Positions 13,169 to 61,494 of a DNA stretch of 64,000 bases are shown here, piece by piece. The position numbers and the translations under genes are program-made. Below the pieces are notes generated by a model. The model saw only the letters and a program-made list of their open reading frames with translations. It did not search any database and had not been told where the DNA came from. Each line of letters opens with the position of its first letter. Position 1 is the stretch's first letter. This stretch comes from an uncultured Actinomycetota bacterium (GTDB lineage Bacteria; Actinomycetota; Actinomycetes; Actinomycetales; Dermatophilaceae): the NCBI GenBank assembly GCA_963771015.1, contig CAVYRN010000013.1, positions 25,211-89,210 of the forward strand, in the 5' to 3' direction.

Positions 13169-13819
13169 TCACCGGGAGAACTCGACGGCCCCTGCCCCGG
13201 CGAGGTCGCGGATCTCGGTGTCGGTCCCACCGAAGGTCGCCGCGTGCCCGAGGTAGAGGTCGCGGCCACGTTGGGCGAGGAGGCGGTCGTGGATGGGCAC
13301 GGCATACGGCGGGTTGTGGCGCCGCAGGAAGGCGGTCATCTCCTTGCTGGCCTGCCACGGGGCGTTGAGCGGGAAGGCGAGGACATCGACGTCGCCGAAC
13401 TCCGCGTCGAGCGCGTCACCCGGGTGGTAGAGGCTCGGCTCGCCGTCGGCGTCGAGGCGCACGCCGAGGTTGCCGATCCGGGGCAGGTCCTCGTGGATGA
13501 CGGCGTGCCGGTCGCCGTACGGGGTCACGGTCACCCCGCCGATCCGGCTCGGGCCGTCGTGGACGCTCGCCTCGACCGCGATCCCGGCGAGCACCGGCAG
13601 CGAGTCGGGGTCGCAGATGACCGGAGCGCCGGGGTTGGCGGCGACGAGGGCGGGCATCCGGGAGGTGTCGAGGTGATCGGGGTGCTGATGGGTGATGACG
13701 ATGGCGTCGAGGCCGCTCAGGGCCGTGAAGTCATCGGCGAAGGTGCCCGGGTCGAGGAGGATCCGTGCGTCGGCGATCTCGACGAGGAGGCAGGCGTGGC
13801 CGAGGTGGGTGATCCGCAT
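13169..13819 (-). CDS. MBL-fold metallo-hydrolase
   Basis: ATG at 13819 gives MRITHLGHACLLVE...VITHQHPDHLD, the HxHxDH metallo-beta-lactamase motif. Length is 216 aa. Confidence 0.85.
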   Translation of the reverse strand: MRITHLGHACLLVEIADARILLDPGTFADDFTALSGLDAIVITHQHPDHLDTSRMPALVAANPGAPVICDPDSLPVLAGIAVEASVHDGPSRIGGVTVTPYGDRHAVIHEDLPRIGNLGVRLDADGEPSLYHPGDALDAEFGDVDVLAFPLNAPWQASKEMTAFLRRHNPPYAVPIHDRLLAQRGRDLYLGHAATFGGTDTEIRDLAGAGAVEFSR

Positions 13820-13866
13820 GACCCCACCGTATGCCGAGCGCCCGGCCGCTCGCGCGGCCCCCGATG

Positions 13867-13923
13867 CCCCGGTTCGAGGTATTCCGGTCCCGTCTGGGGG
13901 TACCCGAATACCTCGAACCGGGG
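13867..13923 (-). terminator. Perfect 18-bp hairpin about 20 nt downstream of the RNase P RNA 3' end
   Basis: ccccggttcgaggtattc (13867-13884) pairs perfectly with gaatacctcgaaccgggg (13906-13923) around a 21-nt loop. There is no U-tract. Confidence 0.5.
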
Positions 13924-13941
13924 CGCAGCGACCCCGGAGGG

Positions 13942-14338
13942 GGACGAGCCGGCCTGTAAGCCGGGTTCTGTTCCACGGCCTCGTTACCGAGGCCGTGGCG
14001 ACGGTCATCCATCTGGGACGGCCGTCTCCGACCGCCTCTAGCGCCCTACCCGCGTGCTCGGGCGGGCCGCCCTCGAACGCACGCTGTCTGGACTTGCTCC
14101 GGGTGGGGTTTGCCGAGCCGACCCCGTCACCGGGGCCGCTGGTGGTCTCTTACACCACCGTTTCACCCTTGCCTCGACGCCCGGCTGCACCGGACGCTGA
14201 GGCGGTCTGTTCTCTGTGGCACTGTCCCGCGGGTTGCCCCGGGTGGCTGTTGGCCACCACCTTGCCCTGTGGAGCCCGGACTTTCCTCGACAGCCACGGC
14301 CTGAGCCGCGAGCCGCCGCGACCGTCCGGCCGACTCAT
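13942..14338 (-). ncRNA. rnpB: RNase P RNA (bacterial type A); ends are +/-5 nt
   Basis: The minus strand contains GAGGAAAGTCCGGGCTCC (plus-strand 14271-14288) and ACAGAACCCGGCTTACAGGCCGGCTC near the 3' end. P1 can form between GAGTCGGCC (5') and GGCCGGCTC (3'). Length is about 400 nt. Confidence 0.9.
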
Positions 14339-14349
14339 CCGCACCCAGT

Positions 14350-15804
14350 CTAGGCGAGTACCAGCCCGAGCCGTCCGGTCGCGACATCGGCCGACTCCAC
14401 CCGGACCGACACCGTCTCGCCGAGCCGGGCGCCGCCCGTGGCGAGGGCAAGGATGGGCAGGTCGCTCAGCTGGACGACCGCGCCCCTCTCCTGGGCGTCG
14501 ACGACCACCGCGGCATAGGTCCTGCCCACATGAGCGCCGAGCAGGGCCGCCTCGACCGCGTCGTTGCTCGCCCGTTCGATCGCCCTGGCCCGGTGGTCGG
14601 ACTCGGTCATCAGCCGAGGCAGGTGAGGCAGGGCCACCCGAGCCCACTCGGGCACCTCCGAGCCGGCGGCGACGGCCGCGCAGACGGCGAGGCCGAAGCG
14701 GTCGACGAGCCGGCGCAGCGGTGCCGTCACATGCGCATAGGCGTCGGCGACAGCGGCGTGCTCGACCTGCTCGGGAACCGCTCCGTCGAAGGGCGTGTAC
14801 CCCGCGCCACGGAAGAGGGCGGTCGCCGCGTGGATGAGCGCGAGGTGCCGCGGGTCGCGCCGGTCGAGGCCGCGGATGAAGTCACCGTAGGCCTGCTCCG
14901 CGGGCCAGCTCGCCCCCAGCGCCCGGGCCTGCCGACGGAACCGGCGCACGGCCTCCGGCTGCGGAGCGGGCATGGTCCGCAGGATCCCGACCTGGGCATG
15001 CAGCATGAGGTCGGCCCCCGCCATCCCGGCGAGCAGCGAGATCTGCGCGTTCCACTCCTCGGCCGGGCGGGGCGGCCGGAAATGCAGCGTGAAGCGGCCG
15101 TCGGGGTCCTCGTAGACCTCCTGTTCGGGCATCGGCAGGCTGGCGCCACCGCGAAGCTGCTCCTGGCGCACCCGCCGGGCACCGACCTCGCGGAGCAGGA
15201 CGAGCCGCTCGTCGTCGGTTCCGGCGTCGAGCGCGTCCTGGACGGTGTCGTAGTCGAGCCGGTCGACGCTGCGGACGAGCGCCCGGTAGAGGTCGGTCCC
15301 GGTCAGCTCGCCGTCGGCGGCGAGCCGCAGGTCCCACACGTAGGCCGGGCGCACCTGTCCCGGCAGCAGGCTCGACGCACCCTCGCTGAGCCGCAGGGGG
15401 TGCAGGGGAACGCGCTCGTCGGGGCAGTAGATCGTCTGGCCGCGTCGGCGGACCTCCGCGTCGAGTGCCTGGCCCGGCGAGACGACACAGGTCAGGTCGG
15501 TGATGGCGTACCGGACCCGGAAGCCGTCTCCGTCCCGGTCCAGGCACATCGCCTGGTCCAGGTCGAGCGAGCGGGCCGGGTCGATCGTGACGAACGGGAC
15601 GGCCGTCTCATCCCGGTCGGGCAGGCCGTGCGGCTGCGCGCCCGCGGCCACGGCCTCGGCCAACGCGTCGGCGGGGTACTCCGCGCTGACGTCGAGCTCG
15701 GCACGGATCGCGGCGAAGCGCTCGAGGAGCACCCCGTGGACCCCGTTGGAGGTGGTGGCCTGCGAGGCTCCGAGCCGGATGTGACGATGCGGCATACCGG
15801 TCAA
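14350..15804 (-). CDS. RNB domain-containing ribonuclease (RNase II/R family)
   Basis: 484-aa ORF with FVTIDPARSLDLDQAM, an RNB-type catalytic Asp cluster, and AYAHVTAPLRRLVDR, an RNB motif IV-like segment. Confidence 0.8.
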   Translation of the reverse strand: MTGMPHRHIRLGASQATTSNGVHGVLLERFAAIRAELDVSAEYPADALAEAVAAGAQPHGLPDRDETAVPFVTIDPARSLDLDQAMCLDRDGDGFRVRYAITDLTCVVSPGQALDAEVRRRGQTIYCPDERVPLHPLRLSEGASSLLPGQVRPAYVWDLRLAADGELTGTDLYRALVRSVDRLDYDTVQDALDAGTDDERLVLLREVGARRVRQEQLRGGASLPMPEQEVYEDPDGRFTLHFRPPRPAEEWNAQISLLAGMAGADLMLHAQVGILRTMPAPQPEAVRRFRRQARALGASWPAEQAYGDFIRGLDRRDPRHLALIHAATALFRGAGYTPFDGAVPEQVEHAAVADAYAHVTAPLRRLVDRFGLAVCAAVAAGSEVPEWARVALPHLPRLMTESDHRARAIERASNDAVEAALLGAHVGRTYAAVVVDAQERGAVVQLSDLPILALATGGARLGETVSVRVESADVATGRLGLVLA

Positions 15805-49197: not shown

Positions 49198-49938
49198 ATG
49201 CCAACCCCACTGGTGGCCCTGCACAAGGTCAACAAGCACTTCGGCGACCTCCACGTCCTGAAGGACATCGACCTCGAGATCGACCCGGGCGAGGTCGTCG
49301 TCGTCATCGGCCCCTCGGGGTCGGGGAAGTCCACGCTGTGCCGGACGATCAACCGCCTCGAGACGTTCGAGTCCGGAACGATCGAGATCGACGGCAGCCC
49401 GCTCCCCGAGGAGGGCAAGGCCCTCGCCCAGCTCCGCGCCGACGTCGGCATGGTGTTCCAGAGCTTCAACCTCTTCGCCCACAAGACGATCCTCGAGAAC
49501 GTCACCCTCGGGCCGATCAAGGTCCGCAAGATGGGCAAGGAGGCCGCCGAGGCGCGGGCGATGGAGCTCCTGGAGCGGGTCGGGGTCCAGGAGCAGGCGG
49601 GCAAGTACCCCGCCCAGCTCTCCGGCGGCCAGCAGCAGCGGGTCGCCATCGCCCGGTCCCTCGCCATGGACCCCAAGGTCATGCTCTTCGACGAGCCGAC
49701 CTCGGCCCTGGACCCCGAGATGATCAACGAGGTCCTCGACGTGATGACCGGGCTCGCCACGAGCGGCATGACGATGGTCGTGGTCACCCACGAGATGGGC
49801 TTCGCCCGGCGCGCCGCCAACCGCGTCATCTTCATGGCCGACGGCCAGATCGTCGAGCAGGCCGACCCCGAGACCTTCTTCACCAAGCCCCAGAGCACGC
49901 GGGCCAAGGACTTCCTCGGAAAGATCCTCACCCACTGA
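49198..49938 (+). CDS. gluA: Glutamate/polar amino acid ABC transporter, ATP-binding protein
   Basis: Walker [10 protein letters not shown], signature LSGGQQQR and Walker [11 protein letters not shown]. It is the first gene of a gluABCD-like operon. Confidence 0.88.
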
Positions 49939-50023
49939 CTCCCACGCCGACGTACGGCGCTTGGGCCACTGACTGAACCCGCGGCATACGACCGTCTGCC
50001 GCAGAACCAGGAAGGGAACCCAG

Positions 50024-50848
50024 ATGAACGCACGACGCAACGCGGCCCTGGCCGGTGCGGCCGCGGTCGCCCTCGCCCTGTCCGCCTGCGGTGGCGGAAG
50101 CTCCGCGGGATCGGGCGGCGACTCGATCAAGATCGGCATCAAGTTCGACCAACCCGGCCTCGGCCTGAAGACCGGCGACACCTATGCCGGCCTCGACGTC
50201 GACGTCGCGACCTACATCGCCGACAAGCTCGGCTATGCGGCCGACAAGATCCAGTGGGTCCAGGCCCCGAGTGCCCAGCGCGAGACCCTCATCTCGACGG
50301 GCCAGGTCACGCTCGTGGCGGCGACCTACTCCATCACCGACTCCCGCAAGGAGAAGGTCTCCTTCGCCGGTCCGTACTTCATCGCCGGCCAGGACCTGCT
50401 CGTCCGCTCCGACGACTCCTCGGTCACCGGTCCGGACTCCCTCGCGGGCAAGAAGCTGTGCTCGGTCACCGGCTCGACCTCGGCCCAGAAGGTCACGGAG
50501 AAGGTTCCCGGGGTGAACCTCCAGGAGTTCGGCACGTACTCCGAGTGCGTGGCAGCGCTCGTCTCCGGCACGATCGACGCCGTGACGACCGACGACACGA
50601 TCCTCGCCGGCTACGCCGCCCAGGACCAGTACAAGGGCAAGCTCAAGGTCGTCGGCCAGACCTTCTCGGTCGAGAACTACGGCATCGGCCTGAAGAAGGG
50701 CGATACCGCTCTGTGCCAGAAGGTCACCGACGCCATCACGTCGATGGTGAGCGACGGGTCGTGGCAGAAGTTCGTCGACGCGAACCTCGGACCCGCGGGC
50801 TACCAGCCGGGACCGGACAACCCGCCGACCCCGGCGGCCTGCTCCTGA
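50024..50848 (+). CDS. gluB: Glutamate ABC transporter substrate-binding lipoprotein
   Basis: Signal peptide with lipobox LSACGG, followed by a family-3 solute-binding domain. Confidence 0.85.
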   Translation: MNARRNAALAGAAAVALALSACGGGSSAGSGGDSIKIGIKFDQPGLGLKTGDTYAGLDVDVATYIADKLGYAADKIQWVQAPSAQRETLISTGQVTLVAATYSITDSRKEKVSFAGPYFIAGQDLLVRSDDSSVTGPDSLAGKKLCSVTGSTSAQKVTEKVPGVNLQEFGTYSECVAALVSGTIDAVTTDDTILAGYAAQDQYKGKLKVVGQTFSVENYGIGLKKGDTALCQKVTDAITSMVSDGSWQKFVDANLGPAGYQPGPDNPPTPAACS

Positions 50849-50859
50849 CCCACGCGTGA

Positions 50860-50901
50860 CCCGGTATGCCGCCCGCTCACCGGAGCGGGCGGCATACCGG
50901 G
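50860..50901 (+). other. Perfect 19-bp, 4-nt-loop hairpin between gluB and gluC
   Basis: cccggtatgccgcccgctc (50860-50878) pairs with gagcgggcggcataccggg (50883-50901). Each arm carries one copy of the octamer. Confidence 0.7.
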
Positions 50902-50928
50902 TCGGCCCGCTCTTCGAAGGAGACCCTC

Positions 50929-51594
50929 GTGGGCGACATCTTCGGCACGTACGACATCCTCGGCGCCTTCTGGGTGACCATCCAGCTCGCCGTCCTCTCG
51001 ACGCTGGGCGCTCTGGTCATCGGAACCGTCTTCGCCGTCCTGCGGGTGTCCCCCGTGACGGTGCTCCGGGTGGTCGGGACGAGCTACGTCAACATCGTCA
51101 GGAACACCCCGCTGACGCTCCTCATGGTGTTCAGCGTGCTCGGTCTGACGTTCATCATGGGCCTGGAGATCTCCAACGACCTCTCCCGCAACGCGTACTG
51201 GTGGGCCATCGTCATGCTCGCGGTCTACCACGGGGCGTTCGTCTGCGAGTCGCTGCGCAGCGGGGTCAACACGATCCCCCTCGGTCAGGCCGAGGCCGCC
51301 CGGTCGATCGGGCTGACGTTCGGCCAGTCGCTTCGCGAGGTGCTCCTCCCCCAGGCGTTCCGAGGAGCCATCGCGCCGCTCGGCTCCACCCTCATCGCGC
51401 TCATCAAGAACACGACGGTGGCGGCCGTCATCCTGGGGTCGCGTGAGGCCGCAGGCCTGCTGGCACAGGTGACCGAGAACGAGGGGGCGAGCCTCGGCAC
51501 GTTCTTCTTCTTCGCCCTCGGCTTCGTCGTCCTCACCCTTCCGATCGGGGTCTATCTCACCCGGCTGTCCCAGCGGCTGGCGGTGCAGCGATGA
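50929..51594 (+). CDS. gluC: Amino acid ABC transporter permease
   Basis: GTG at 50929 preceded by GAAGGAG, 221 aa. It has a His/Glu/Gln/Arg-type permease EAA-like loop (GQAEAARSIGLT). Confidence 0.85.
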   Translation: MGDIFGTYDILGAFWVTIQLAVLSTLGALVIGTVFAVLRVSPVTVLRVVGTSYVNIVRNTPLTLLMVFSVLGLTFIMGLEISNDLSRNAYWWAIVMLAVYHGAFVCESLRSGVNTIPLGQAEAARSIGLTFGQSLREVLLPQAFRGAIAPLGSTLIALIKNTTVAAVILGSREAAGLLAQVTENEGASLGTFFFFALGFVVLTLPIGVYLTRLSQRLAVQR

Positions 51595-52547
51595 GCGCCC
51601 TGGCCCTCTTCGACGCGCCGGGACCACGAGCCCGGCGTCGCCATGCCGTCCTCACCGTCATCGGCATCGGGCTCGTCCTCGTCGTCATCGGCCTCGCCGC
51701 GTGGAAGATGAGGCAGGCGAACCAGCTCCAGGGCTATATGTGGAAGCCGTTCGTCACCGACCCGCAGGTGTGGACCGAGTACCTGCTGCGCGGCCTGTGG
51801 GGCACCCTCAAGGCCGCCCTCCTCTCGGTCGTGTTCGCCGGGATCTTCGGGATCATCTTCGGGATGGGACGACTCTCGGCCAACCCCGTCACCCGGTGGG
51901 CATGCGGGATCGTCGTCGAGTTCTTCCGGTCCGTGCCGGTGCTCCTCATGATGGTCTTCGCCTACTTCGGATGGTTCGCCCGGAGCAGCTGGCTGTCGAA
52001 CGACATCGCACCGCTCGCCGCGGTCGTCCTCGCCCTCACCCTCTACAACGGCTCGGTCATCGCCGAGCTGGTCCGCTCCGGGGTGCACTCGCTGCCCAAG
52101 GGACAGTCCGAGGCGGGCCTGTCGATCGGGCTCACCCGGAGCCAGACGCTCCGCTCGATCCAGCTCCCCCAGGCCCTGACGGCGATGCTTCCCGCGCTCA
52201 TCAGCCAGCTCGTCGTCGTTCTCAAGGACAGCGCCCTCGGCACGGTCATCACGTACCAGGAGCTACTCACCTGGTCCAAGACGCTGGGGTCGGCCTACGC
52301 CAACACCGTCCCGGCCTACCTCGTCGCGGCCCTGCTGTTCATCGGGATGAACTACTCGCTGACCAAGATCGCCGCGAAGGCCGAGCGGCAGCTCAGCCGC
52401 CGTGGCCACACCACGGCGACGATGACCACCGAGGCACCGAACATCATCCAGGGGGGCGCCGAGCCCGGTGGCCCGGCCACCGTGGGCGCCGACGTGATCG
52501 CGCACAAGTTCGAGGACATCGCGGAGTCGCGCCACCACCACGAGTGA
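51591..52547 (+). CDS. gluD: Amino acid ABC transporter permease with C-terminal extension
   Basis: ATG overlaps the gluC stop (ATGA). It has the GQSEAGLSIGLT loop and is 318 aa. Confidence 0.85.
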   Translation: MSALALFDAPGPRARRRHAVLTVIGIGLVLVVIGLAAWKMRQANQLQGYMWKPFVTDPQVWTEYLLRGLWGTLKAALLSVVFAGIFGIIFGMGRLSANPVTRWACGIVVEFFRSVPVLLMMVFAYFGWFARSSWLSNDIAPLAAVVLALTLYNGSVIAELVRSGVHSLPKGQSEAGLSIGLTRSQTLRSIQLPQALTAMLPALISQLVVVLKDSALGTVITYQELLTWSKTLGSAYANTVPAYLVAALLFIGMNYSLTKIAAKAERQLSRRGHTTATMTTEAPNIIQGGAEPGGPATVGADVIAHKFEDIAESRHHHE

Positions 52548-52616: not shown

Positions 52617-53780
52617 TCAGATCGTGTGGGTCGCGGTGAACGTCGGTGTGTTGGTGAAGGGGTTGCTGGCGGTCGCCGTGGACGAGATCGTCCCCCCGCC
52701 GTTGCCGCTGAGGCCGACGGTGAAGGCGAGATTGCTCGTCGCGGTGTACGGCGCCAGGGAACCCGTCCAGGCGAACGTGTAGACCCGCTCGGACCCCACA
52801 TGGGCCACGCTCTGGTATGCCCACCCGGTCCCGGACACCCCGGTCGGGGCGGCCCCGGAGACCCACGCGTCGGGGAAGGCCACCGTCACCGTCAGCGAGT
52901 TGAGTGTCCGTAGCGTCGAGCCGCCCGCGTTCTGCACCGACAGCTCCCCCGCCAGCGCGGTGGGCCGCCCTTGTCCGTTGTACGCGCTCCCGTAGAAGGT
53001 GTAGAAGGTGAAGCCGATGGTGCTCGTCGCGCCTGCCGACACGGTGATGGCGGCGCTGCAGCTGCTCGTGCTGGCGAGGTTGTAGCCGTCGGCCGGGCTG
53101 TAGGTCGCACGCCAGTGGTAGGTGCCGGCGGCAGGTTGGAGCGCGGCCGTGGCGGCTCCTCCCGACAGGGTCTTGGCGGGGCTCGTGTAGCTGGGGGTGC
53201 CGGTGCACGTCGCGCTGGTGTACAGCGCCAGAACGACCGTCCCGGCCGGCGTGCCATAGCCGGCGTTGCCGCTGACGGTGGCCGTGGCACTGAAGCTGGT
53301 GCCGGAGGTGCCTGTCGTGGGGGTGATGGTGCCGAGCGTCGTCGTCGTCGCCTGCCTGCTGGTGGTCGCCGTCACCGTCGCCGGACTGACCCACGAGTGG
53401 AACGACGCCGCGAGGGTCCAGGTGTACGAGGTGTTCGGGGTCAACGAGGTCGCGGTGCAGCCGGTCGAGGCGGTCGCCGGGGCAGCGGGGCAGCCGGTCA
53501 GCGTGCCCGGGGACTGGCTCAGGACGTATGCCGTCGGCGTGAAGGGAGACGTCCAGGCCAGACCGGCCGAGGTGGCGGTGACCGAGGCGGTCGAGAGGGC
53601 GGGGGTTGCCAACGTGCCTGCCTGGGCCCGGCCGTACGTCCCGGTGGAGGTCACGGTCCAGTAGCTGTAGGCGGGTCCGGCCATGATGACGAGCAACCCG
53701 GCCGTGATGGCCGTGACAAGGCGGCCCCGGACTCGACGGCGGGGAGCCGTCGAGCGTCGCCGGGGCGCGGCCGCCGTCAT
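52617..53780 (-). CDS. Secreted multi-domain protein (FN3-like plus Ig-like) with GPAYSYWT-type signal end; operon gene 4
   Basis: ATG at 53780 overlaps the upstream stop (ATGA). The N-terminus reads RRRVRGRLVTAITAGLLVIMAGPAYSYWTVTSTG. It is followed by an FN3-like segment (SLTPNTSYTW) and an Ig-like segment (GTVVLALYTS..GTYHWRATYSPADGY). Length is 387 aa. The 613-aa track ORF is an over-extension. Confidence 0.65.
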   Translation of the reverse strand: MTAAAPRRRSTAPRRRVRGRLVTAITAGLLVIMAGPAYSYWTVTSTGTYGRAQAGTLATPALSTASVTATSAGLAWTSPFTPTAYVLSQSPGTLTGCPAAPATASTGCTATSLTPNTSYTWTLAASFHSWVSPATVTATTSRQATTTTLGTITPTTGTSGTSFSATATVSGNAGYGTPAGTVVLALYTSATCTGTPSYTSPAKTLSGGAATAALQPAAGTYHWRATYSPADGYNLASTSSCSAAITVSAGATSTIGFTFYTFYGSAYNGQGRPTALAGELSVQNAGGSTLRTLNSLTVTVAFPDAWVSGAAPTGVSGTGWAYQSVAHVGSERVYTFAWTGSLAPYTATSNLAFTVGLSGNGGGTISSTATASNPFTNTPTFTATHTI

Positions 53781-54352
53781 TGCCGCACCGTGACGGTCAC
53801 GGGGATCCGGAACGAGGCCCCCTGGCAACCCGACGCCGACGCGGTGCTCATCAACGCCCCCGCGGGCACGTGGACCACGGACGTGGCTCCGCCCGCAACC
53901 GGGATGCTCAACGCGGTCAAGGAGGCCACCGAGACGCCGGAGTTGCCGCTTGTTCCCGGCCAGGCCGGGTCGCTGGTGCACCCGGCCCCGCCCTGGACGC
54001 TCACCCCGCCGCCCTGGGAGACACTCACGATGGTCACCGGGGCCGGGTTCGGGTTCGTCACGTTCAGCAGCAGATCCGCGCTGGTTCCCGGCATCAGGGA
54101 GGACGACGGCGAGCCGGTCACCGCGGACAGGATCGCCAGGGGCTGCAGGCTGCCGGTGGTGGCCGTACCCGGGCCCGCACCGACCAGTGCCGTGAAGTAT
54201 CCGAACGCCGGTCCGGTCACCAGACCCACGGCAAGGACCGACGTGCCGGCGGTGTACAGCGCCCGTTTCCGCAGACGCGGCAGCCGACGCCCGGTCACCG
54301 CCGGTCTCCGGTGCCGCCCGGCCACGGCGCCTCTCCGATGCCGCCCGGTCAC
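53777..54352 (-). CDS. Secreted paralog with GPAFGYFT-type signal end; operon gene 3
   Basis: GTG at 54352 overlaps the upstream stop (GTGA); in-frame alternatives are 54325 and 54298. The signal region reads RLRKRALYTAGTSVLAVGLVTGPAFGYFTA. A Cys pair (GGAGCTSD...SASGCQGASF) is shared with genes 1 and 2. Confidence 0.6.
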   Translation of the reverse strand: MTGRHRRGAVAGRHRRPAVTGRRLPRLRKRALYTAGTSVLAVGLVTGPAFGYFTALVGAGPGTATTGSLQPLAILSAVTGSPSSSLMPGTSADLLLNVTNPNPAPVTIVSVSQGGGVSVQGGAGCTSDPAWPGTSGNSGVSVASLTALSIPVAGGATSVVHVPAGALMSTASASGCQGASFRIPVTVTVRQ

Positions 54353-54966
54353 GGCGACTCCCCCGTCCGGCGCCGGGCGCGGCGGCCAGCGAGAACCAGG
54401 GCCACTCCCCACAGCGACAGGGCCAGCCCGAAGAGCGCCTCGCGGATCGGGTCCGCACCCGTGAACGCGAGCGATCCTGTCGTCTCCGTCTTGTCAGCGG
54501 TCCCGGTGAAGACGAAATGCAGCACCGTCTGCTTGCAGCCGTCCTGGTTGAGCGAGGTGTCCTTCAGCGTGACGGGAAGTCCCGGGCTGAGTGCGCTGCC
54601 CAGCCCGGGCACGGTCAACGTGCCGGCGAACGCGGGCAGATCGAGCTCACCCGACGAACACCCCGACGGGGGCGGTGGGTAGCTCGGGTCGAGGCTCATG
54701 CTCATGGTCCGGACCGTGATGGGAACATCGAGGTAGTTCTCGACCCGGTAGACCAGACAGCGGGTGACGCCCGGCGCCAGCGGTGCCGCCGGCCCGACGC
54801 ACGCAGCGGCCGGGAACGTCATCGACGCGGCGGCGTGCACGGTGCCGCTGATGGAGAACGTTTGGGTCCCGGAGGCCAGCGACCACGACGGCTCGTTCGC
54901 CGCGGGGACCGCTGCCAGGAGCAGCAGGCCGCTCGCCGCAAGACCGGTGAGGGTGCGCGGCGCCAT
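54349..54966 (-). CDS. Cell-wall-anchored paralog with LAFTG sorting signal; operon gene 2
   Basis: ATG at 54966. The signal peptide is MAPRTLTGLAASGLLLLAAVPA. The C-terminus is LAFTG + ADPIREALFGLALSLWGVALVLAG + RRARRR, a classic sortase sorting signal of the LAxTG flavour. Confidence 0.7.
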   Translation of the reverse strand: MAPRTLTGLAASGLLLLAAVPAANEPSWSLASGTQTFSISGTVHAAASMTFPAAACVGPAAPLAPGVTRCLVYRVENYLDVPITVRTMSMSLDPSYPPPPSGCSSGELDLPAFAGTLTVPGLGSALSPGLPVTLKDTSLNQDGCKQTVLHFVFTGTADKTETTGSLAFTGADPIREALFGLALSLWGVALVLAGRRARRRTGESP

Positions 54967-55074
54967 GGCGACGAACCATCGCTGCCCGATCTGGCGCACC
55001 ACCCCTCCTTCCCGCACGACGACGTCGACAACAGGCCGAGCCCATGCGGTGGTCGCATGGGCTCGGCCGACGGC

Positions 55075-55551
55075 CTAGCTGACGGCGTAGGCGAGGTTGA
55101 CGGTGGCTCCCTTGCAGGCGTCCTGGTTGGTGGCCTTGTTGTTGAAGATGATCGTGGCGCCGGTCCATGCGCCCTGCGCCGTTCCGGCGGGCACCTCGGC
55201 GTTGACGGTCATCGCGGCATTGGCCAGGGTGTAGTCGCTCGCGTCGCAGGTCCCTGACGGGGCGCCGACGGCCTTGGTGACGGAGGCGATGCTGGCCGTC
55301 ACTTTCGACACGTAGACCGGGCCGGCATTGGGGTTGTCGAAGCTGCCGGAGAGGGCCTGGGCGGCGACTCCCGGTCCCATGGCGGTCACCGTCGTCGTCT
55401 GCACGACGGTGATGGCCACGGTGGACCCGGTCGCGGCGGAGCCCGTCCCCGAGCCGCCCACCGTCCAGTACGCGAACGCCCCGCCGCTGCCGACCAGCAT
55501 CAGCGCGAGGGTGACCAGGGCGGTCTTCTTCTTCTTCGACCACGTACTCAC
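55075..55551 (-). CDS. Small secreted paralog with GGAFAYWT-type signal end; operon gene 1 (putative major subunit)
   Basis: GTG at 55551 lies 7 nt after GAGAAGGAG. The N-terminus reads STWSKKKKTALVTLALMLVGSGGAFAYWTVGGSGTGSAATG. The Cys pair is SGTCDASD...NQDACKGATV. Length is 158 aa. Confidence 0.65.
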   Translation of the reverse strand: MSTWSKKKKTALVTLALMLVGSGGAFAYWTVGGSGTGSAATGSTVAITVVQTTTVTAMGPGVAAQALSGSFDNPNAGPVYVSKVTASIASVTKAVGAPSGTCDASDYTLANAAMTVNAEVPAGTAQGAWTGATIIFNNKATNQDACKGATVNLAYAVS

Positions 55552-55893: not shown

Positions 55894-56019
55894 TGTTGGA
55901 CTCCTGTGGACACAAGAGGCAGAAGTGGCCTCTGACCTGCGAGAACGTTGGCTGAGACTACGACTCCAACAGTCCGCCAAGTGACGACAGAGGCCACAAA
56001 CCGCCGTACGATCCGATGC

Positions 56020-57255
56020 ATGGCCGATGCAAAATCGCCCCGCCGCCGGTTCGGGCAGCTGGCGCGGATGCGGTCCGGACGGTGGCAGGCACGCTTCACC
56101 GTCCCGCTGGGCCACCCCTCGGGACGTGGCGGTCAGACGATCACCGCGCCGCACACGTTCGAGCCGACGACGTACGGCAAGGAGGCCGCAGGCGACTGGC
56201 TTCGCGACGAGGAACGACGTCTGGTCGCCGAAGGGGCGGCATGGGCCACCCTGGCGGAGCACGCCGCGGCCGAGCGGGCGCAGGCCGAGCGCGCGGCCAT
56301 GGTCACCTTCGCCGAGTTCTCCGCGACGTGGCTTCGGACGCGTCGGACCAAGAACGGACCATTGCAGGAGTCCACGCGACGTGGCTACCGGCTCTGGCTC
56401 GACAAGTACCTCCTGCCGACCCTGGGCGACCTGCCCCTGGACGAGATCACCCCGAGCGTCATCCTGCGGTGGTACGAGGACGCCCTCCCTCACGACAAGC
56501 CGAAGACGACGCGTGAGTGCTACGCCCTGGGGTCGGCCATCATGCGGACGGCGACGGCCGCGGACGGCATGCTGGCTGGAGCCGTGAACCCCTTCAAGAT
56601 CGACGGTGCCGGCTCCATCGGTGCCCGCTCACGCGCCCGTACGGAAGTGCTCGACGACCACGACCTGCGGGTGATCATGTCGACCATCCGGCCCGAATGG
56701 CGGGCCATGGTCGCGCTCGCCCTCGGATGTGGCCTGCGCTTCGGCGAGATCATCGCGCTCCGCCGGTCCGACATCGACCTGAAGGCGAACTCTCCCGTCG
56801 TCCGCATCACTCGCGCCGTGGGCACCGGTCCCGGCGGCCGTCGCTACGAGAAGGACCCAAAGAGCGCCGCCGGAAAGCGGGACCAACGGATACCGGCCTC
56901 CGTCGTCGATGCGTTGGCCGAGCACCTCCGCACCTACGTCACCGGTAGGGACGGGCTACTCTTCCCCGCCCCGGACGGCGGGTGGCTCTCCGAGACCCGG
57001 TTCCGGAAGGCGTCCGGAGGCTGGCTCGCTGTCCGTGAAGCGGTCGGTCGCCCGGTCAACTTCCACGACCTGCGAGCGACCGGCGCCACGCGGATGGCGC
57101 AGCGGGGGGCGCACGTCGACGAGGTCAAGGTGTTCCTCGGGGACAGCTCGACCCAGGCCGCCGAGCGCTATGTCAGAGCAACGCAGAGCCGGATGGACGA
57201 CCTCACCGCGGCCGCGTTCGCAACCGTCGACTTCGGAACCGCTCGCGAACGGTGA
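56020..57255 (+). CDS. int: Tyrosine-type site-specific integrase
   Basis: ATG at 56020, 411 aa. It has an SAM-like N-terminal core-binding domain and the catalytic residues in context: GLRFGE (Arg), HDLRATGAT (His-x-x-Arg), ERY (Tyr). Confidence 0.88.
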   Translation: MADAKSPRRRFGQLARMRSGRWQARFTVPLGHPSGRGGQTITAPHTFEPTTYGKEAAGDWLRDEERRLVAEGAAWATLAEHAAAERAQAERAAMVTFAEFSATWLRTRRTKNGPLQESTRRGYRLWLDKYLLPTLGDLPLDEITPSVILRWYEDALPHDKPKTTRECYALGSAIMRTATAADGMLAGAVNPFKIDGAGSIGARSRARTEVLDDHDLRVIMSTIRPEWRAMVALALGCGLRFGEIIALRRSDIDLKANSPVVRITRAVGTGPGGRRYEKDPKSAAGKRDQRIPASVVDALAEHLRTYVTGRDGLLFPAPDGGWLSETRFRKASGGWLAVREAVGRPVNFHDLRATGATRMAQRGAHVDEVKVFLGDSSTQAAERYVRATQSRMDDLTAAAFATVDFGTARER

Positions 57256-57309
57256 ACCGAAACGGACCGCTACGTGCGGTCCGCGCAGCGGCCGTCGAGA
57301 CCTTCCGGG

Positions 57310-57777
57310 TCAGCGTTCCCACGGTGGTCGCCACTGCCTCGTTGTACGGCGGTCCAGGGCTGCGACCAGCTCGGCGACCGCGGGGGTGAGGGCGGGCAGG
57401 TCGCGGTCGTAGATCCGCCCGGTATCGACGCGGCGGGTGAGGTCTGCGAGGACCTCGACGAACTCTCCGACGCTGCCGGGCAGCACCGGGACCGGGATTT
57501 CTGTGGTGTGGTGCTGGACCACGGTGACGGTCTTGACGGTCTCGACGATGCGGTCCTTGACCTCGACCGCGGCGAACCCGTTGGCGGCCGCGCGGCGCTG
57601 TTCCCAGGCCCGGTGACGGCACGCGGGCGAGCACCATTTCGGCACCCGCCCCCGCGCCGGGACGAGCACGTCCTGGCCGCACCAGCCGCAGGCGACGCTC
57701 TGTCCTGGAGCGCGCGGGGACGACCGTCTCCCGGGACTGGCCGGCCCCTTGTCAGTTGTGTCTGATCGGCCGCTCAT
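57310..57777 (-). CDS. Zinc-ribbon protein, paralog 1 of a divergent pair
   Basis: ATG at 57777, 155 aa. It contains ACGWCGQDVLVPARGRVPKWCSPACRHRAWEQRRAAANG. The upstream 48 codons of the track ORF are doubtful. Confidence 0.6.
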   Translation of the reverse strand: MSGRSDTTDKGPASPGRRSSPRAPGQSVACGWCGQDVLVPARGRVPKWCSPACRHRAWEQRRAAANGFAAVEVKDRIVETVKTVTVVQHHTTEIPVPVLPGSVGEFVEVLADLTRRVDTGRIYDRDLPALTPAVAELVAALDRRTTRQWRPPWER

Positions 57778-57913
57778 GGCCACCTCCCCTGGTCGGCCCT
57801 CGCCGGTCGTTGTCGTCACAACGATAGGACACGCACCGGGGGTGCAAGAGGTGTGTGGAATTCGTCGTGACAGGTTATGGTGCGTCGGTGGCGAGGAGCG
57901 GGGGAAGCGGCTG

Positions 57914-58300
57914 ATGGTCACGGGAGCGCAGGCTGCGGGTCGTCGGGTGCCGGGTCAGGTGCTGGCGTGTGGGTGGTGCGGGCAGCCGGTCACGGTGAAG
58001 GCACGGGGGCCGGTGCCGAAGTGGTGCTCGGCGTCGTGTCGGCAACGAGCCTGGGAGGCGTCCCGGGCCGCGGCCTCGGGGAAGGCCGCGGTGCGGGTGG
58101 TCGACCGGGAGGTGCTGGTGGTCCCTGGGGACGCGGCCGGCTGGGTCCAGCACCTGGGCCTGCTCGCCCGTCAGCTGGGGCAGGGGCCGGCTGTGGTCGC
58201 CGACCACGACCTCGACGGCGTCGCTGACGCGCTCGACATGGTCAGCGACGCGCTGGCCGAGCGGGTGCGGTGGCGGGGCAGGTTCGAACCCTGGGAGTAA
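57914..58300 (+). CDS. Zinc-ribbon protein, paralog 2 of a divergent pair
   Basis: ATG at 57914, 128 aa. It contains ACGWCGQPVTVKARGPVPKWCSASCRQRAWEASRAAASG and is collinear with paralog 1. Confidence 0.6.
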   Translation: MVTGAQAAGRRVPGQVLACGWCGQPVTVKARGPVPKWCSASCRQRAWEASRAAASGKAAVRVVDREVLVVPGDAAGWVQHLGLLARQLGQGPAVVADHDLDGVADALDMVSDALAERVRWRGRFEPWE

Positions 58301-58431
58301 CGCCGCGACGGTCCTTCGGCGAGCCCTCTCGACGACGAGTGGCGGACTCATCTCACCCGGGCAGCCGCCAGCCAGACCACTACTGACATGTGGGACACGT
58401 GATCTCGGCCCCGAGTGTGGCCGTGGCGGCG

Positions 58432-58728
58432 TCAGGCGGTGGCTTCGAAGTGCAGCCGTAGGCCGAGCGCGTGGGCGACTTTCAGGACCGTGGCCAACGA
58501 GGGGTTGCCGTCCGCGGAGAGGGCCTTGTACAGACCTTCGCGACTCATCCCCGCCTCGCGAGCGATCTGGCTGAAGTTGCGGGATCGGGCGATCGCGCCG
58601 AGGGCGGCGGCGATGACCTGGGGGTCGTCGTCGGCGTCGTCGAGGACGGCCTCGAGGTAGGCGGTGACGTCCGCGAAGCTGTTCAGGTAGTCGGCGCTGT
58701 CGAAGGGGGTGAACGTCTCGTCGCTCAT
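58432..58728 (-). CDS. higA: HigA-type antitoxin (HTH, addiction-module antidote)
   Basis: ATG at 58728 overlaps the toxin stop (ATGA). The product contains NFSQIAREAGMSREGLYKALSADGNPSLATVLKVAHALG. Confidence 0.75.
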   Translation of the reverse strand: MSDETFTPFDSADYLNSFADVTAYLEAVLDDADDDPQVIAAALGAIARSRNFSQIAREAGMSREGLYKALSADGNPSLATVLKVAHALGLRLHFEATA

Positions 58729-59030
58729 GGTCGGCTTCCTCTCCATTCGTCAGCGATCTGGTGCGCGGCCCGGATGTCGGCGTCCTGGCTGGACTTGTCA
58801 CCGCCGGTGAGCAGCAGGATGACCCGGTCGCCGTCCTTCAGGTAGTAGATGCGGTAGCCGGGGCCGTAGCTGATCCGCAGTTCGGAGACGCCGCGGCCGA
58901 CGGGTTTGACGTCTCCGGGGTTGCCGGCCGTCAGCCGGTTGATCCGGACCAGTACCCGTGCCCGGGCGCGGGGGTCTTTGAGTCTTCTGAGCCATCGGTC
59001 GAAGGTGCCCGATCGGATGACCTCAACCAT
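58725..59030 (-). CDS. higB: RelE/ParE-superfamily toxin (addiction-module killer, HigB-like; toxin gene first)
   Basis: 101-aa ORF with FDRWLRRLKD..ARARV..RINRL..GNPGDVKPVG.GVSELRI..GPGYRIYY, the killer-protein pattern. Confidence 0.75.
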   Translation of the reverse strand: MVEVIRSGTFDRWLRRLKDPRARARVLVRINRLTAGNPGDVKPVGRGVSELRISYGPGYRIYYLKDGDRVILLLTGGDKSSQDADIRAAHQIADEWRGSRP

Positions 59031-59146
59031 GTGTTAACTGTAGTTGACATCTCTGGCTGCGGCAACACGCGACCCGTCATCCAAGCCGACGTGGACGACG
59101 TAGGTCGACCGGCGACCGAAGACGCAGCCGGTCGGCCTTCACATCG

Positions 59147-59617
59147 TCATGGCAACTCGGGTTCTGGGTGCGCTCGCTCGAACTCCTGGACGGCGCTCCC
59201 GTCGATCAACGCCTCCGCAGCAAGCCAGCTCACTGCTCGGCCCACTGCCCGGGCATCCCTGAAGCCGTGCCAAACAGAGATCAGGTCCGGATGGCGCTGA
59301 TAGAGCTCGTTCTTGAAACGCCGGAACGCGCCCGTGCCCCGCAGAGCAAGGTGCAGGGCCTCGCCGGCGGCCCTGTCACTGATGCCGTCCGCGAAGTCGG
59401 CCATGTCCTGGTACCAGACGTATGGAGGAAGGGGGCCGATAAGAATGAGATCCAACTCGTCGAGCTCGAGGGGGTTCTCACCGTCCACGCCGGTGTCGCT
59501 GGTCCAGAACGCGATCTCGCCGGTCCTTGGGTCGATCAGCCACCGATGCTCGTAGTCGGTCTGGTCCGCCAACGCAGTCGCGATCTCCTGAACATCGATC
59601 GCGTTCAGGTCGAGCAT
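59147..59617 (-). CDS. UPF0158-family protein
   Basis: ATG at 59617, 156 aa. GTGAFRRFKNELYQRHPDLISVWHGF is the family's signature region as I recall it. Confidence 0.6.
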   Translation of the reverse strand: MLDLNAIDVQEIATALADQTDYEHRWLIDPRTGEIAFWTSDTGVDGENPLELDELDLILIGPLPPYVWYQDMADFADGISDRAAGEALHLALRGTGAFRRFKNELYQRHPDLISVWHGFRDARAVGRAVSWLAAEALIDGSAVQEFERAHPEPELP

Positions 59618-59700
59618 CGGATCAGCGTATGACGCCAGCCGGCCGCCCAACAGGCGGCGGTAGGGGAACTTTGATGGCCGAGCATCGAGGGTTTGCCAGC

Positions 59701-59982
59701 TCACAGGGGGCGGTAGGCCTCGCTGCGGTGATCGATGCGCAGCACGACGACCTCACCGCGCTCCTCGTTGATGCGGTACAGAACGCGGTAGGTGCCACGC
59801 CGCGCTGAGTAGATGCCCGAGAGATCCCCCCGCAGCCGCTTGCCGACCCGGTGGGGGTTGTCCACCAGGGCCCCGGTGAGGAACTCGATCACGGCGACGG
59901 CCACGGCCTCGGGAAGGCCGGTGCGGATTGCGCGTACCGCCGGTGGGGTGAGGACCAGCTCGTAGGCGACAGGCGCAGTCAC
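59701..59982 (-). CDS. relE: RelE/ParE-family toxin
   Basis: 93-aa ORF with L.G.L.G.YSARRG.YRVLYRI.....VVVLRI.HR. It overlaps the antitoxin by 4 nt. Confidence 0.8.
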   Translation of the reverse strand: MTAPVAYELVLTPPAVRAIRTGLPEAVAVAVIEFLTGALVDNPHRVGKRLRGDLSGIYSARRGTYRVLYRINEERGEVVVLRIDHRSEAYRPL

Positions 59983-60245
59983 CGGCGCAGGGCGCGGACC
60001 GCGTCGACGCCGCGGACGACGTCACCGGCGGCATACGCCGCGTCCGCCTCGCGGATGTCCGCCAGGGCGGCCGCGTCGCTGAGGACGGCCAGGGTCTCCT
60101 CGAGCTCGGCCAGGTCCTCGGGGCTGATGATCACCGCGGCGGCACGCCCGTTGCGGGTCACGGTCACCCGGTCGTGTTCGCGCTCGACCCGGTCGACGAC
60201 ATCGCTGAAGTGGTCGCGGACCTCGCGCAGCGGCTCAACACTCAT
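59979..60245 (-). CDS. Phd/YefM-family antitoxin
   Basis: ATG at 60245, 88 aa. It contains REVRDHFSDVVDRVEREHDRVTVTRNGRAAAVIISPEDLAELEETL. Confidence 0.8.
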   Translation of the reverse strand: MSVEPLREVRDHFSDVVDRVEREHDRVTVTRNGRAAAVIISPEDLAELEETLAVLSDAAALADIREADAAYAAGDVVRGVDAVRALRR

Positions 60246-60350
60246 GGCCACAATTGTGGCGCCTTCCAAGGATCCTCGCAAGGCTGCGTATCGCGGCGAA
60301 GTGCAGCACCTTCAGCCGACGGGTGGACTGTCTCTTCGGGAGGCGGCGGG

Positions 60351-61200
60351 CTACGGCACTGCCCGGATGTCGGTCCAGGTCTGGGTTTCGCACTGGTGGT
60401 CGGTGTTGTTCCCGGCGCTCAGGATGGTGCCGTCGGCACGGAGGCCCAGGGTGTGGGTGGAGCCGGCTGCCACGGCGATGACATCGCGCCAATGGTGTAC
60501 GTCGCACTGGCCATGGGTGTTGTCACCCGTGGCCAGGACTCGTCCGGAGGCGGTGAGCGCGACGGTGTGGTAGCTGCCCGCGGCCACCATCTCCACGTCC
60601 CGCCAAGCCTCGACCGCGCACGCACCCATCGACCGGTCACCGGTCGCGGCGAGACGGCCGTCGGCGCGCACCCCGACCGTGTGCAGGTACCCCGCCGCGA
60701 TAGCGGTCGGCCCCGCCAGGTGTCGACATCGCACTGCCCCCGACGGTTGACACCCGCGGCCACCGCGGTCCCGTCGGCACGGACCCCGACCGAATGCCAG
60801 TCACCACAGGAGATGGCCACGACCTCACGCCAGGGGTCCACATCGCACGCACCCTCGGCGGTGCGACCAGCAGCAACGACGGTGCCGTCACCGTGCAACC
60901 CCAGGGTTCGCCGCCACCCGCGGCCACCGCCACGACGCCCCGCCAGGAGCCCAGGTCGCACTGCCCGTCACCGTTCCACCCCGTCGCCACCACCGTGCCG
61001 TCCCCGCGCAGCCCCACCGTGTGCGAGCGTCCCGTGTTGGCGGCGGCATGCACGTTGCCCGCAGCAACCGCCACGACGTGCTCCCACCGGCCGACCTCCA
61101 GCTCCCCAGCGGCGCCGCCGCCCACCGCCACGACCCTGCCGTCGCACCGCCGCCCCACCGAGTGACGCCTCCCGGCCGCCAGAGCTGTCCGAGGTCGCAT
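60351..61200 (-). pseudogene. RCC1-repeat (beta-propeller) protein gene split over three frames
   Basis: ATG at 61200 follows GAGGAGGAGAG. About six to seven repeats of the type VAAG..HTVGLR.DGTVVA.G.N..GQC.V..W continue from ORF 60637..61380 into 60419..60961 and then into 60351..60734. This implies two frameshifts, near 60900 and 60730. Confidence 0.65.
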
Positions 61201-61494
61201 CTCTCCTCCTCGCCCGGCACCAAGATCGCCCATCGCATTCAACACCGCCGCGCCCACGCCGTCCCCCAGCTGACCGGCCGGCCCCAGGCCGAGCCGCCCA
61301 GCACGCGGCGGAGTGGGGCAGGCGCGAACCGCCCGACGCTGATGAGCCCGAACCGGGGGTGCCGCCGCGACTGTCAGCACATGGTCCGCCCGCTTTGGGA
61401 GGGGGTGCGCGTTGTCCTGGATGTGGTGGCCGTCACCGTAGCTCGTCGTCGCCAGCCCCCAGGGATAGCGTGGTGACTGGGTCTGGGAGGCGGT

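Follow-up and report, generated by a model that had tools for sequence, protein, structure and literature searches.

Relatives of TasA and CalY in a Conserved Gene Cassette of Actinomycetota and Chloroflexota: a Candidate Donor-Strand Fiber

Introduction

Fibers of the TasA superfamily have been characterized experimentally in Bacillus and in archaea (PMC9674648, PMC10151520, PMC9245690). In the Bacillus tapA-sipW-tasA system, residues 28-38 of TasA form the donor strand, and TapA, which has a look-alike N-terminus, nucleates the fibers (PMC9674648, PMC10151520). The archaeal protein AbpA is cleaved by a generic signal peptidase, no dedicated peptidase is encoded nearby, and AbpB, a large protein encoded downstream, has been proposed as the initiator or adhesin (PMC9245690). 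In bacteria, AbpX loci are linked to LPXTG anchors; donor-strand oligomers have been predicted with AlphaFold 3 (AF3), and tip and minor components are predicted for AbpX loci generally (bioRxiv 10.64898/2026.01.04.697558). The subject of this report is a cassette of four genes, G1 to G4, in a 64-kb stretch of DNA from an uncultured bacterium of the Dermatophilaceae (Actinomycetota; GenBank assembly GCA_963771015.1, contig CAVYRN010000013.1, positions 25,211 to 89,210). The whole of this stretch is referred to as the window. The four genes are co-oriented on the minus strand and fill positions 52617-55551. The cassette is real, conserved, and uncharacterized, and a search of the literature on DUF6299, TIGR04088/9, and actinobacterial TasA-like proteins found no characterization or experimental work.

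A first-pass annotation, made from the DNA sequence alone, had interpreted the cassette as a candidate cell-surface fiber system with a major subunit (G1), a wall anchor (G2), a minor subunit (G3), and a tip adhesin (G4). These roles fit both the distribution of modules among the four proteins and a hairpin that follows G1. The analysis described here points to a donor-strand fiber of the TasA superfamily that does not depend on SipW, whose base is acceptor-only and anchored by a sortase and whose tip is donor-only, a reading to which slightly better than even confidence is attached.

The G1 Protein and the TasA/CalY Family

G1 (55551..55075, minus strand) encodes the proposed major subunit, a protein of 158 amino acids, and has a GTG start with GAAGGAG 6 nt upstream. 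The exact protein is present in public collections. It consists of a 27-residue signal peptide, an N-terminal extension (Nte) of the form YWTxGGSGTGSAxTG, and a beta-sandwich core with the cysteine pair C102-C146. The protein has a pI of about 4.8, only five acidic residues, and no histidine. In the AlphaFold2 (AF2) model the core is a confident seven-stranded sandwich (pLDDT 82-94), and residues 19-43 are disordered.

The relationship to TasA and camelysin (CalY) emerged from the comparison of family profiles. CalY/TasA family members were collected and 26 of them aligned, the TasA sequence having been verified against PDB entries 8aur and 5of1. With hhalign, the G1 family aligned to this profile over 152 colinear columns (91.1%, E 1e-6), so that G1 residues 1-158 correspond to CalY residues 1-189. 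The aligned blocks pair GGAFA/YWT with GGTFA/FFSD (the slash marking the cleavage site), L.PGD with LKPGD, and NQDxCKGAxVxLxY with DQNxFQGDxLxLEW. Specifically, the predicted cleavage site of G1, together with the residues that open the mature protein, is in register with the TasA donor strand (residues 28-38). The comparison was informative only against the CalY/TasA family profile, and against the single TasA sequence it was weak (18%). Additionally, 128 representatives of the G1 family were scanned against the Pfam and NCBIfam models. The gathering score of PF12389 (Peptidase_M73, camelysin/TasA), 22.5, was passed by two G1 homologues, P0098 (25.1 bits) and P0090 (23.0 bits), which are each about 70% identical to G1 and match the model over residues 11-89. 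At E<0.01, 12 of the 128 representatives matched PF12389, and G1 itself had no match at E<=1. The alignments thus identify G1 as a compact TasA/CalY homologue without the central insert. Because this insert is missing, the mature domain of G1 has about 130 residues compared with about 170-234 in TasA/CalY.

Further features are common to the two groups. The signal peptide of TasA/CalY, like that of G1, has 27 residues and ends small-aromatic-small, and a conserved segment follows directly after the cleavage site, which is the donor strand in TasA and the Nte in G1. In both cases accessory proteins carry a look-alike N-terminus, namely TapA in Bacillus and G3 and G4 here. In contrast, the window cassette contains no SipW gene, G1 possesses a conserved disulfide pair and a Gly-rich Nte, one paralogue, G2, combines what would be an acceptor-only core with a sortase signal, and the hosts are Actinomycetota and Chloroflexota. 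AbpA/AbpB and AbpX belong, by their description, to other sequence families, and the five acidic residues of G1 distinguish it from the acidic, calcium-binding AbpX. Finally, G1 core residues 46-128 match DUF6299 (PF19816) below threshold (22.7 against 26.8 bits), and the homologue P0090 passes with 27.5 bits. Since the function of DUF6299 is not known, this match adds no mechanism.

Conserved Signal Ends

G1, G3, and G4 had been described as sharing an N-terminal layout, and the peptides quoted for them match the sequence exactly. In each protein a basic stretch and a hydrophobic helix lead to A-x-(A/G/S)/(Y)(W/F)T, and their signal ends read GSGGAFAYWTVGGSGTGSAATG, VTGPAFGYFTALVGAGPGTATTG, and MAGPAYSYWTVTSTGTYGRAQAG. 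When the window was searched in all six frames with the pattern A-[aromatic/aliphatic]-[small]-[YFW]-[WFY]-[TS], just three matches were obtained, each of them behind the hydrophobic helix of G1, G3, or G4. In G1 the match is A-F-A/Y-W-T at 55462..55479 on the minus strand. By a rough estimate, fewer than one match would be expected by chance in the window. The common layout is not due to chance, as the comparisons of family profiles given below show.

The signal end had also been called unusual. With respect to cleavage it is a canonical A-x-A site for signal peptidase I, and what is unusual is the conservation that follows the site. Among 148 members of the G1 family, position -3 is Ala in 95%, -2 is Phe or Tyr in 84%, and -1 is Ala in 93%. 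Past the site, +1 is Tyr or Phe in 98%, +2 is Trp in 97%, and +3 is Thr or Ser in 100%. Gly then occupies +6, +8, and +10 in 100, 95, and 94% of the sequences, respectively, and Ala occupies +12 in 83%. The signal has a median length of 27 residues in the family, and the conservation reaches 15 residues beyond the cleavage site. The period-2 pattern of Gly and Ala points to an extended strand with one flat face. The statement that the end is neither a lipobox, a type IV pilin site, nor a Tat motif held on inspection of the sequences and of the family profile. The n-region of G1 is rich in Lys, there is no Cys near the cleavage site, and a weak N_methyl match was found in 1 of the 128 representatives. 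Readings of these proteins as Tat substrates, lipoproteins, or type IV pilins were accordingly dropped.

Modules of the Four Proteins

Family alignments of the proteins syntenic with G2, G3, and G4 were built from 80 loci around G1 homologues and compared by hhalign. These loci, gathered from species-representative genomes, are the best 80 by identity to G1. The G1 and G3 families aligned over the signal peptide, the Nte, and the first strands (97.7%, E 2.5e-12). The alignment of the G1 and G2 families was confined to the core, pairing G1 58-156 with G2 72-163 and including both cysteines (97.8%, E 8e-13). With the G4 family only the first 35 residues aligned (93%). The result is that G1 and G3 combine Nte and core, G2 combines the core with a sorting signal, and G4 combines the Nte with unrelated domains. 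Such a complementary distribution of Nte and core among four proteins would be expected of a head-to-tail polymer that is polar and has two different ends.

The cysteine pairs proposed for the first three genes are indeed present. They are C102/C146 in G1 and C125/C176 in G3, and both homologous cysteines are among the four of G2. The description of the cassette as a conserved operon of secreted Cys-pair paralogues is upheld for G1 to G3 but not for G4, which has only its signal and Nte in common with G1.

G2 (54999..54349, minus strand, with alternative starts at 55002 and 55017) encodes a protein of 216-222 residues. As had been noted, it has an ordinary signal peptide and, at 54385..54471 on the minus strand, a cell-wall sorting signal composed of LAFTG, a hydrophobic segment, and RRARRR. 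The G1-like core follows the signal peptide without an Nte, and there is a weak match to the LAXTG model NF058583. Twelve syntenic G2 homologues were found, and the layout of L(A/P)xTG, transmembrane segment, and RR(R/K) is kept in the homologues from the other loci. From actinobacterial LAXTG substrates, LAFTG is presumed to mark G2 as a substrate of class E sortase.

G3 (54352..53777, minus strand) encodes a protein of 191 residues, or of 173 residues if it starts at 54298, with a signal peptide, an Nte of the form YFTAxxGxGxGTATTG, and the Cys-pair core. It is the proposed minor or adaptor subunit. Two 4-nt overlaps had been reported. The ATGA overlap of G3 and G4 agrees with public gene calls, but the GTGA overlap of G2 and G3 is possible rather than certain because public gene callers start G3 54 nt downstream, which yields the shorter protein.

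G4 (53780..52617, minus strand; 387 residues) is the proposed donor-only tip or nucleator. After the signal peptide and an Nte beginning YWTxxSTG it contains three beta-sandwich domains at about residues 61-140 (FN3), 145-248 (Ig-like), and 253-386. The AF2 model, built on 40 homologues, bears out the FN3-like and Ig-like modules that had been suggested (pLDDT 88.5), and it shows a signal helix at residues 18-33 and disorder at 36-52. Foldseek matches of the model were tandem FN3 arrays (contactin FN1-3, E 1e-9), integrin leg domains, and alpha-2-macroglobulin MG domains, with no enzyme fold among them. The Pfam scan gave a weak fn3 match. Among 44 G4 homologues the N-terminal 60% is conserved and the C-terminal domain is often replaced, a pattern typical of adhesin-like tips.

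The Hairpin after G1 and Conservation of the Cassette

The spacer of 75 nt between G1 and G2 contains a stem-loop at 55034-55068 on the minus strand, a perfect and GC-rich 15-bp stem that begins 7 nt past the G1 stop codon (-44 kcal/mol, z -4.0). The 80 nt after each G1 homologue were folded for 81 loci, and 140 control genes from the same loci were treated alike. The median z was -2.6 after G1 homologues vs 0.05 for the controls, and z was below -3 in 40 and 6% of the cases, respectively (Mann-Whitney p 4e-12). The hairpin persists across loci while the sequences differ. It is likely to be an intra-operon attenuator or an element that stabilizes the mRNA. Either would fit a role of attenuation or transcript stabilization in making G1 the most abundant product, as for a shaft subunit.

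The G1 family is large. A word-index search with G1 gave 1749 matches, and a profile search gave 3060 representatives of 50%-identity clusters at E<=1e-3 and 1203 at E<=1e-10. Two peptide patterns place the family in at least 427 species genomes of Actinomycetota and Chloroflexota, including Nocardioidaceae, Micrococcaceae, Microbacteriaceae, Solirubrobacterales, Iamia, Chloroflexia, and Limnocylindrales. The conserved order is G1, one or two small paralogues, and a large protein of 340 to more than 1300 residues, and a core made up of G1, one small paralogue, and a large protein with an Nte is kept in most of the 81 loci examined, which span two phyla. In many loci the large downstream protein opens with the same A-x-[AGS]/[YF]W[TS] start and is otherwise unrelated. 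This sharing of the Nte with large unrelated proteins parallels the likeness of TapA to the TasA donor strand (PMC9674648, PMC10151520).

A Model for Assembly and Its Alternatives

In the proposed fiber, G1, G3, and G4 would be exported by the Sec pathway and cut by the housekeeping signal peptidase I at the A-x-A site. Cleavage would expose an Nte that starts with Y-W/F-T and, in G1 and G3, continues as G-x-G-x-G-x-A with the period-2 repeat of an extended strand. A disulfide would form in the core, and the Nte of one subunit would complete the beta-sandwich of the next. G1, made in excess by virtue of the hairpin after its gene, would polymerize into the shaft, and G3 may be a low-abundance adaptor. 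G2, with an acceptor core and no Nte, would be linked to peptidoglycan by the housekeeping class E sortase and thereby provide a fixed, acceptor-only end. At the other end, G4, with an Nte and no acceptor core, may cap or nucleate the fiber and display its FN3 and Ig-like domains, as proposed for TapA and AbpB. Neither a dedicated SipW peptidase nor a chaperone would be needed. The AF2 models are consistent with this scheme in that they leave the Nte of G1 and that of G4 disordered next to folded domains predicted with confidence. Given the AbpX predictions, the architecture has computational precedent in Firmicutes.

Chaperone-usher pili (Fim/Pap) offer a further comparison. They also combine an N-terminal extension with an incomplete Ig-like fold, one terminal subunit lacks the extension, and the major-subunit gene comes first; in Fim/Pap this gene, too, is followed by a hairpin. 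Despite these likenesses the families are unrelated, and there is no chaperone, usher, or outer membrane here. The polarity relative to the cell would also be reversed, because the anchored subunit is the acceptor-only one.

Several results weigh against a TasA-like fiber. Nothing in the four window proteins, G1 included, scores above any Pfam or NCBIfam threshold. A Foldseek search of PDB with the G1 model returned nothing significant, only generic sandwiches. The TasA fiber (8aur_A) ranked 32nd with E 0.32, its query TM-score of 0.43 being the highest in the list. The G1 family profile found only noise among PDB sequences. The Nte is rich in Gly, Ser, and Thr and is not alternately hydrophobic as in the donor strands of TasA and chaperone-usher pili. 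In the best 80 loci the identity to G1 is 54-82%, an uncommonly high level of conservation for a structural protein that is secreted, and the 55-82% identity across phyla would be unusual in a pilin. Moreover, G2 is present in only about 15 of the 80 loci, so that anchoring through G2 does not apply to the cassette in general.

One alternative, though unlikely, is a set of secreted monomeric beta-sandwich proteins with a binding, coat, or camelysin-like function, in which the conserved N-terminus would serve only for recognition by a SipW-type peptidase encoded elsewhere. A stable TasA monomer exists (PMC9674648). The first-pass annotation had likened the signal ends to those of the SipW-dependent or alternate-type class. 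The kinship with TasA/CalY contained in that comparison stands, given the colinear full-length alignment and the homologues that match PF12389, but a dependence on SipW is unlikely. The TIGR04088 and TIGR04089 proteins do have the same motif shape around the cleavage site as G1, G3, and G4. A search with these two models, however, left the four window proteins without a match at E<=1; each model was weakly matched by 1 of the 128 representatives, and a few representatives touch the TIGR04088/89/90 and TasA models. As had been stated, the 64-kb window contains neither a signal peptidase nor a sortase signature. There is no SipW-type peptidase in the window and no conserved peptidase cluster in the 80 loci, and one lies nearby in only 1 of the 81 loci. 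SipW dependence is unlikely because such a peptidase is lacking in the window and in 80 of the 81 loci.

The sole exception is a Chloroflexia metagenome-assembled genome (locus L020), in which a TIGR02228 peptidase (90 bits) lies 3 kb from the G1 cassette, a finding that would suit recognition by SipW. Positions 13258-15246 of this locus encode a TasA-like protein (with the motif SLALFSS), a SipW/archaeal-type signal peptidase I, and a further small secreted protein. This segment separates the G1 cassette from the conserved gene that comes next and places two TasA-superfamily systems side by side. The peptidase is assigned to a separate, canonical TasA-like cassette inserted beside that of G1. 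Recognition by a peptidase alone would also leave unexplained the conservation to +15, the acceptor-only and donor-only architectures, and the hairpin for excess expression. G1 has no histidine and hence is not a metalloprotease, and the camelysin-type metalloprotease reading was rejected for this reason.

It is similarly improbable that the signal peptides remain uncleaved. In that case G1, G3, and G4 would be membrane proteins of type II with YWT at the membrane interface and the Gly-rich segment as a flexible tether, and they would join the wall-anchored G2 in an envelope or adhesion complex that is not filamentous. Ahead of YWT there are 16-22 uncharged residues, a borderline membrane span if the AxA segment is counted. 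Membrane interfaces commonly hold aromatic residues, and AF2 shows a helix followed by a disordered linker. On the other hand, the Ala residues at -3 and -1 in the G1 family and the small residues in G3 and G4 follow the rule of signal peptidase I, for which a membrane anchor has no need. The CalY/TasA alignment also places the site in register with the known cleavage site of TasA, and the invariant Gly pattern speaks against a mere flexible tether. A Gram-positive pilus whose subunits are joined covalently by a pilus-specific sortase would account for the LAFTG signal of G2 but can be given almost no weight and was rejected, since the shaft candidates and G4 (G1, G3, and G4) lack a C-terminal sorting signal, the window contains no sortase gene and none is conserved among the 80 loci, no plausible gene carries a TLxTC signature, and there is no pilin-family Pfam match.

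Genomic Neighborhood

Directly upstream of G1, on the opposite strand, lies a tyrosine integrase gene (55948-57255, plus strand). Past the integrase are no fewer than two toxin-antitoxin pairs, one of a Gp49/HigB-like toxin and an HTH antitoxin (58432-59030) and one that, by sequence inspection, resembles a RelE/ParE-like toxin and a Phd/YefM-like antitoxin (59701-60281). The region also contains a UPF0158 gene, and 55948-60281 looks like a small integrated islet. No convincing att-like direct repeats were found around the integrase. Farther on, positions 60351-61380 contain five tandem DNA copies of about 113-114 nt with 60-70% identity, and the minus strand encodes RCC1-like repeats (HTVxLxxDGxVxAxGxNxxGQCDV). 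Their frame is split over three overlapping open reading frames, which suggests frameshifts, a pseudogene, or assembly errors. On the other side of the cassette, a four-gene amino-acid ABC transporter (49198-52547, plus strand) encodes an ATPase, an SBP_bac_3 binding protein, and two BPD_transp_1 permeases. It is convergent with the cassette, ends 70 nt from the G4 stop codon, and is probably unrelated to it.

The neighbors differ in other genomes. The genes pdxS and pdxT/yebC are normally adjacent. In seven loci (L010, L011, L031, L035, L037, L043, and L047), several of them titled Nocardioides or Nocardioidaceae, they flank the cassette. Its position between pdxS and pdxT there, and between the ABC transporter and the integrase in the window, suggests that the cassette moves as a unit. 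In about 14 loci, including L021, L022, L029, L032, L038, and L042, a response regulator gene, sometimes with a histidine kinase, is adjacent to the G1 homologue or oriented divergently from it. Many of these loci are from Micrococcaceae, and the window has no such gene. This regulator may control the cassette. The two-component, ABC transporter, pdxS/pdxT, and GNAT neighbors were rejected as parts of the cassette and represent lineage-specific context.

Implications

The G1 family comprises about 3000 clusters at 50% identity in two phyla that are dominant in soil, and the window protein falls below the Pfam and NCBIfam thresholds. A broader proposal, tentative and on balance doubtful, is that these cassettes represent a widespread pilus class of Gram-positive bacteria, the third of its kind. 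Such a pilus would be a polar donor-strand polymer that needs neither a chaperone nor SipW, with an acceptor-only base fixed to peptidoglycan by the housekeeping sortase, a strongly conserved TasA-like shaft locked by disulfides, and interchangeable donor-only tip adhesins. It would be common among Actinomycetota and Chloroflexota of soil and would have spread by horizontal transfer. If the cassette does form fibers, the Actinobacteria would gain a major structure for matrix or adhesion beside their sortase pili and Tad/type IV pili. The cassette would also illustrate how a polymer built by donor strands can gain defined ends without a chaperone, an usher, or a dedicated peptidase.

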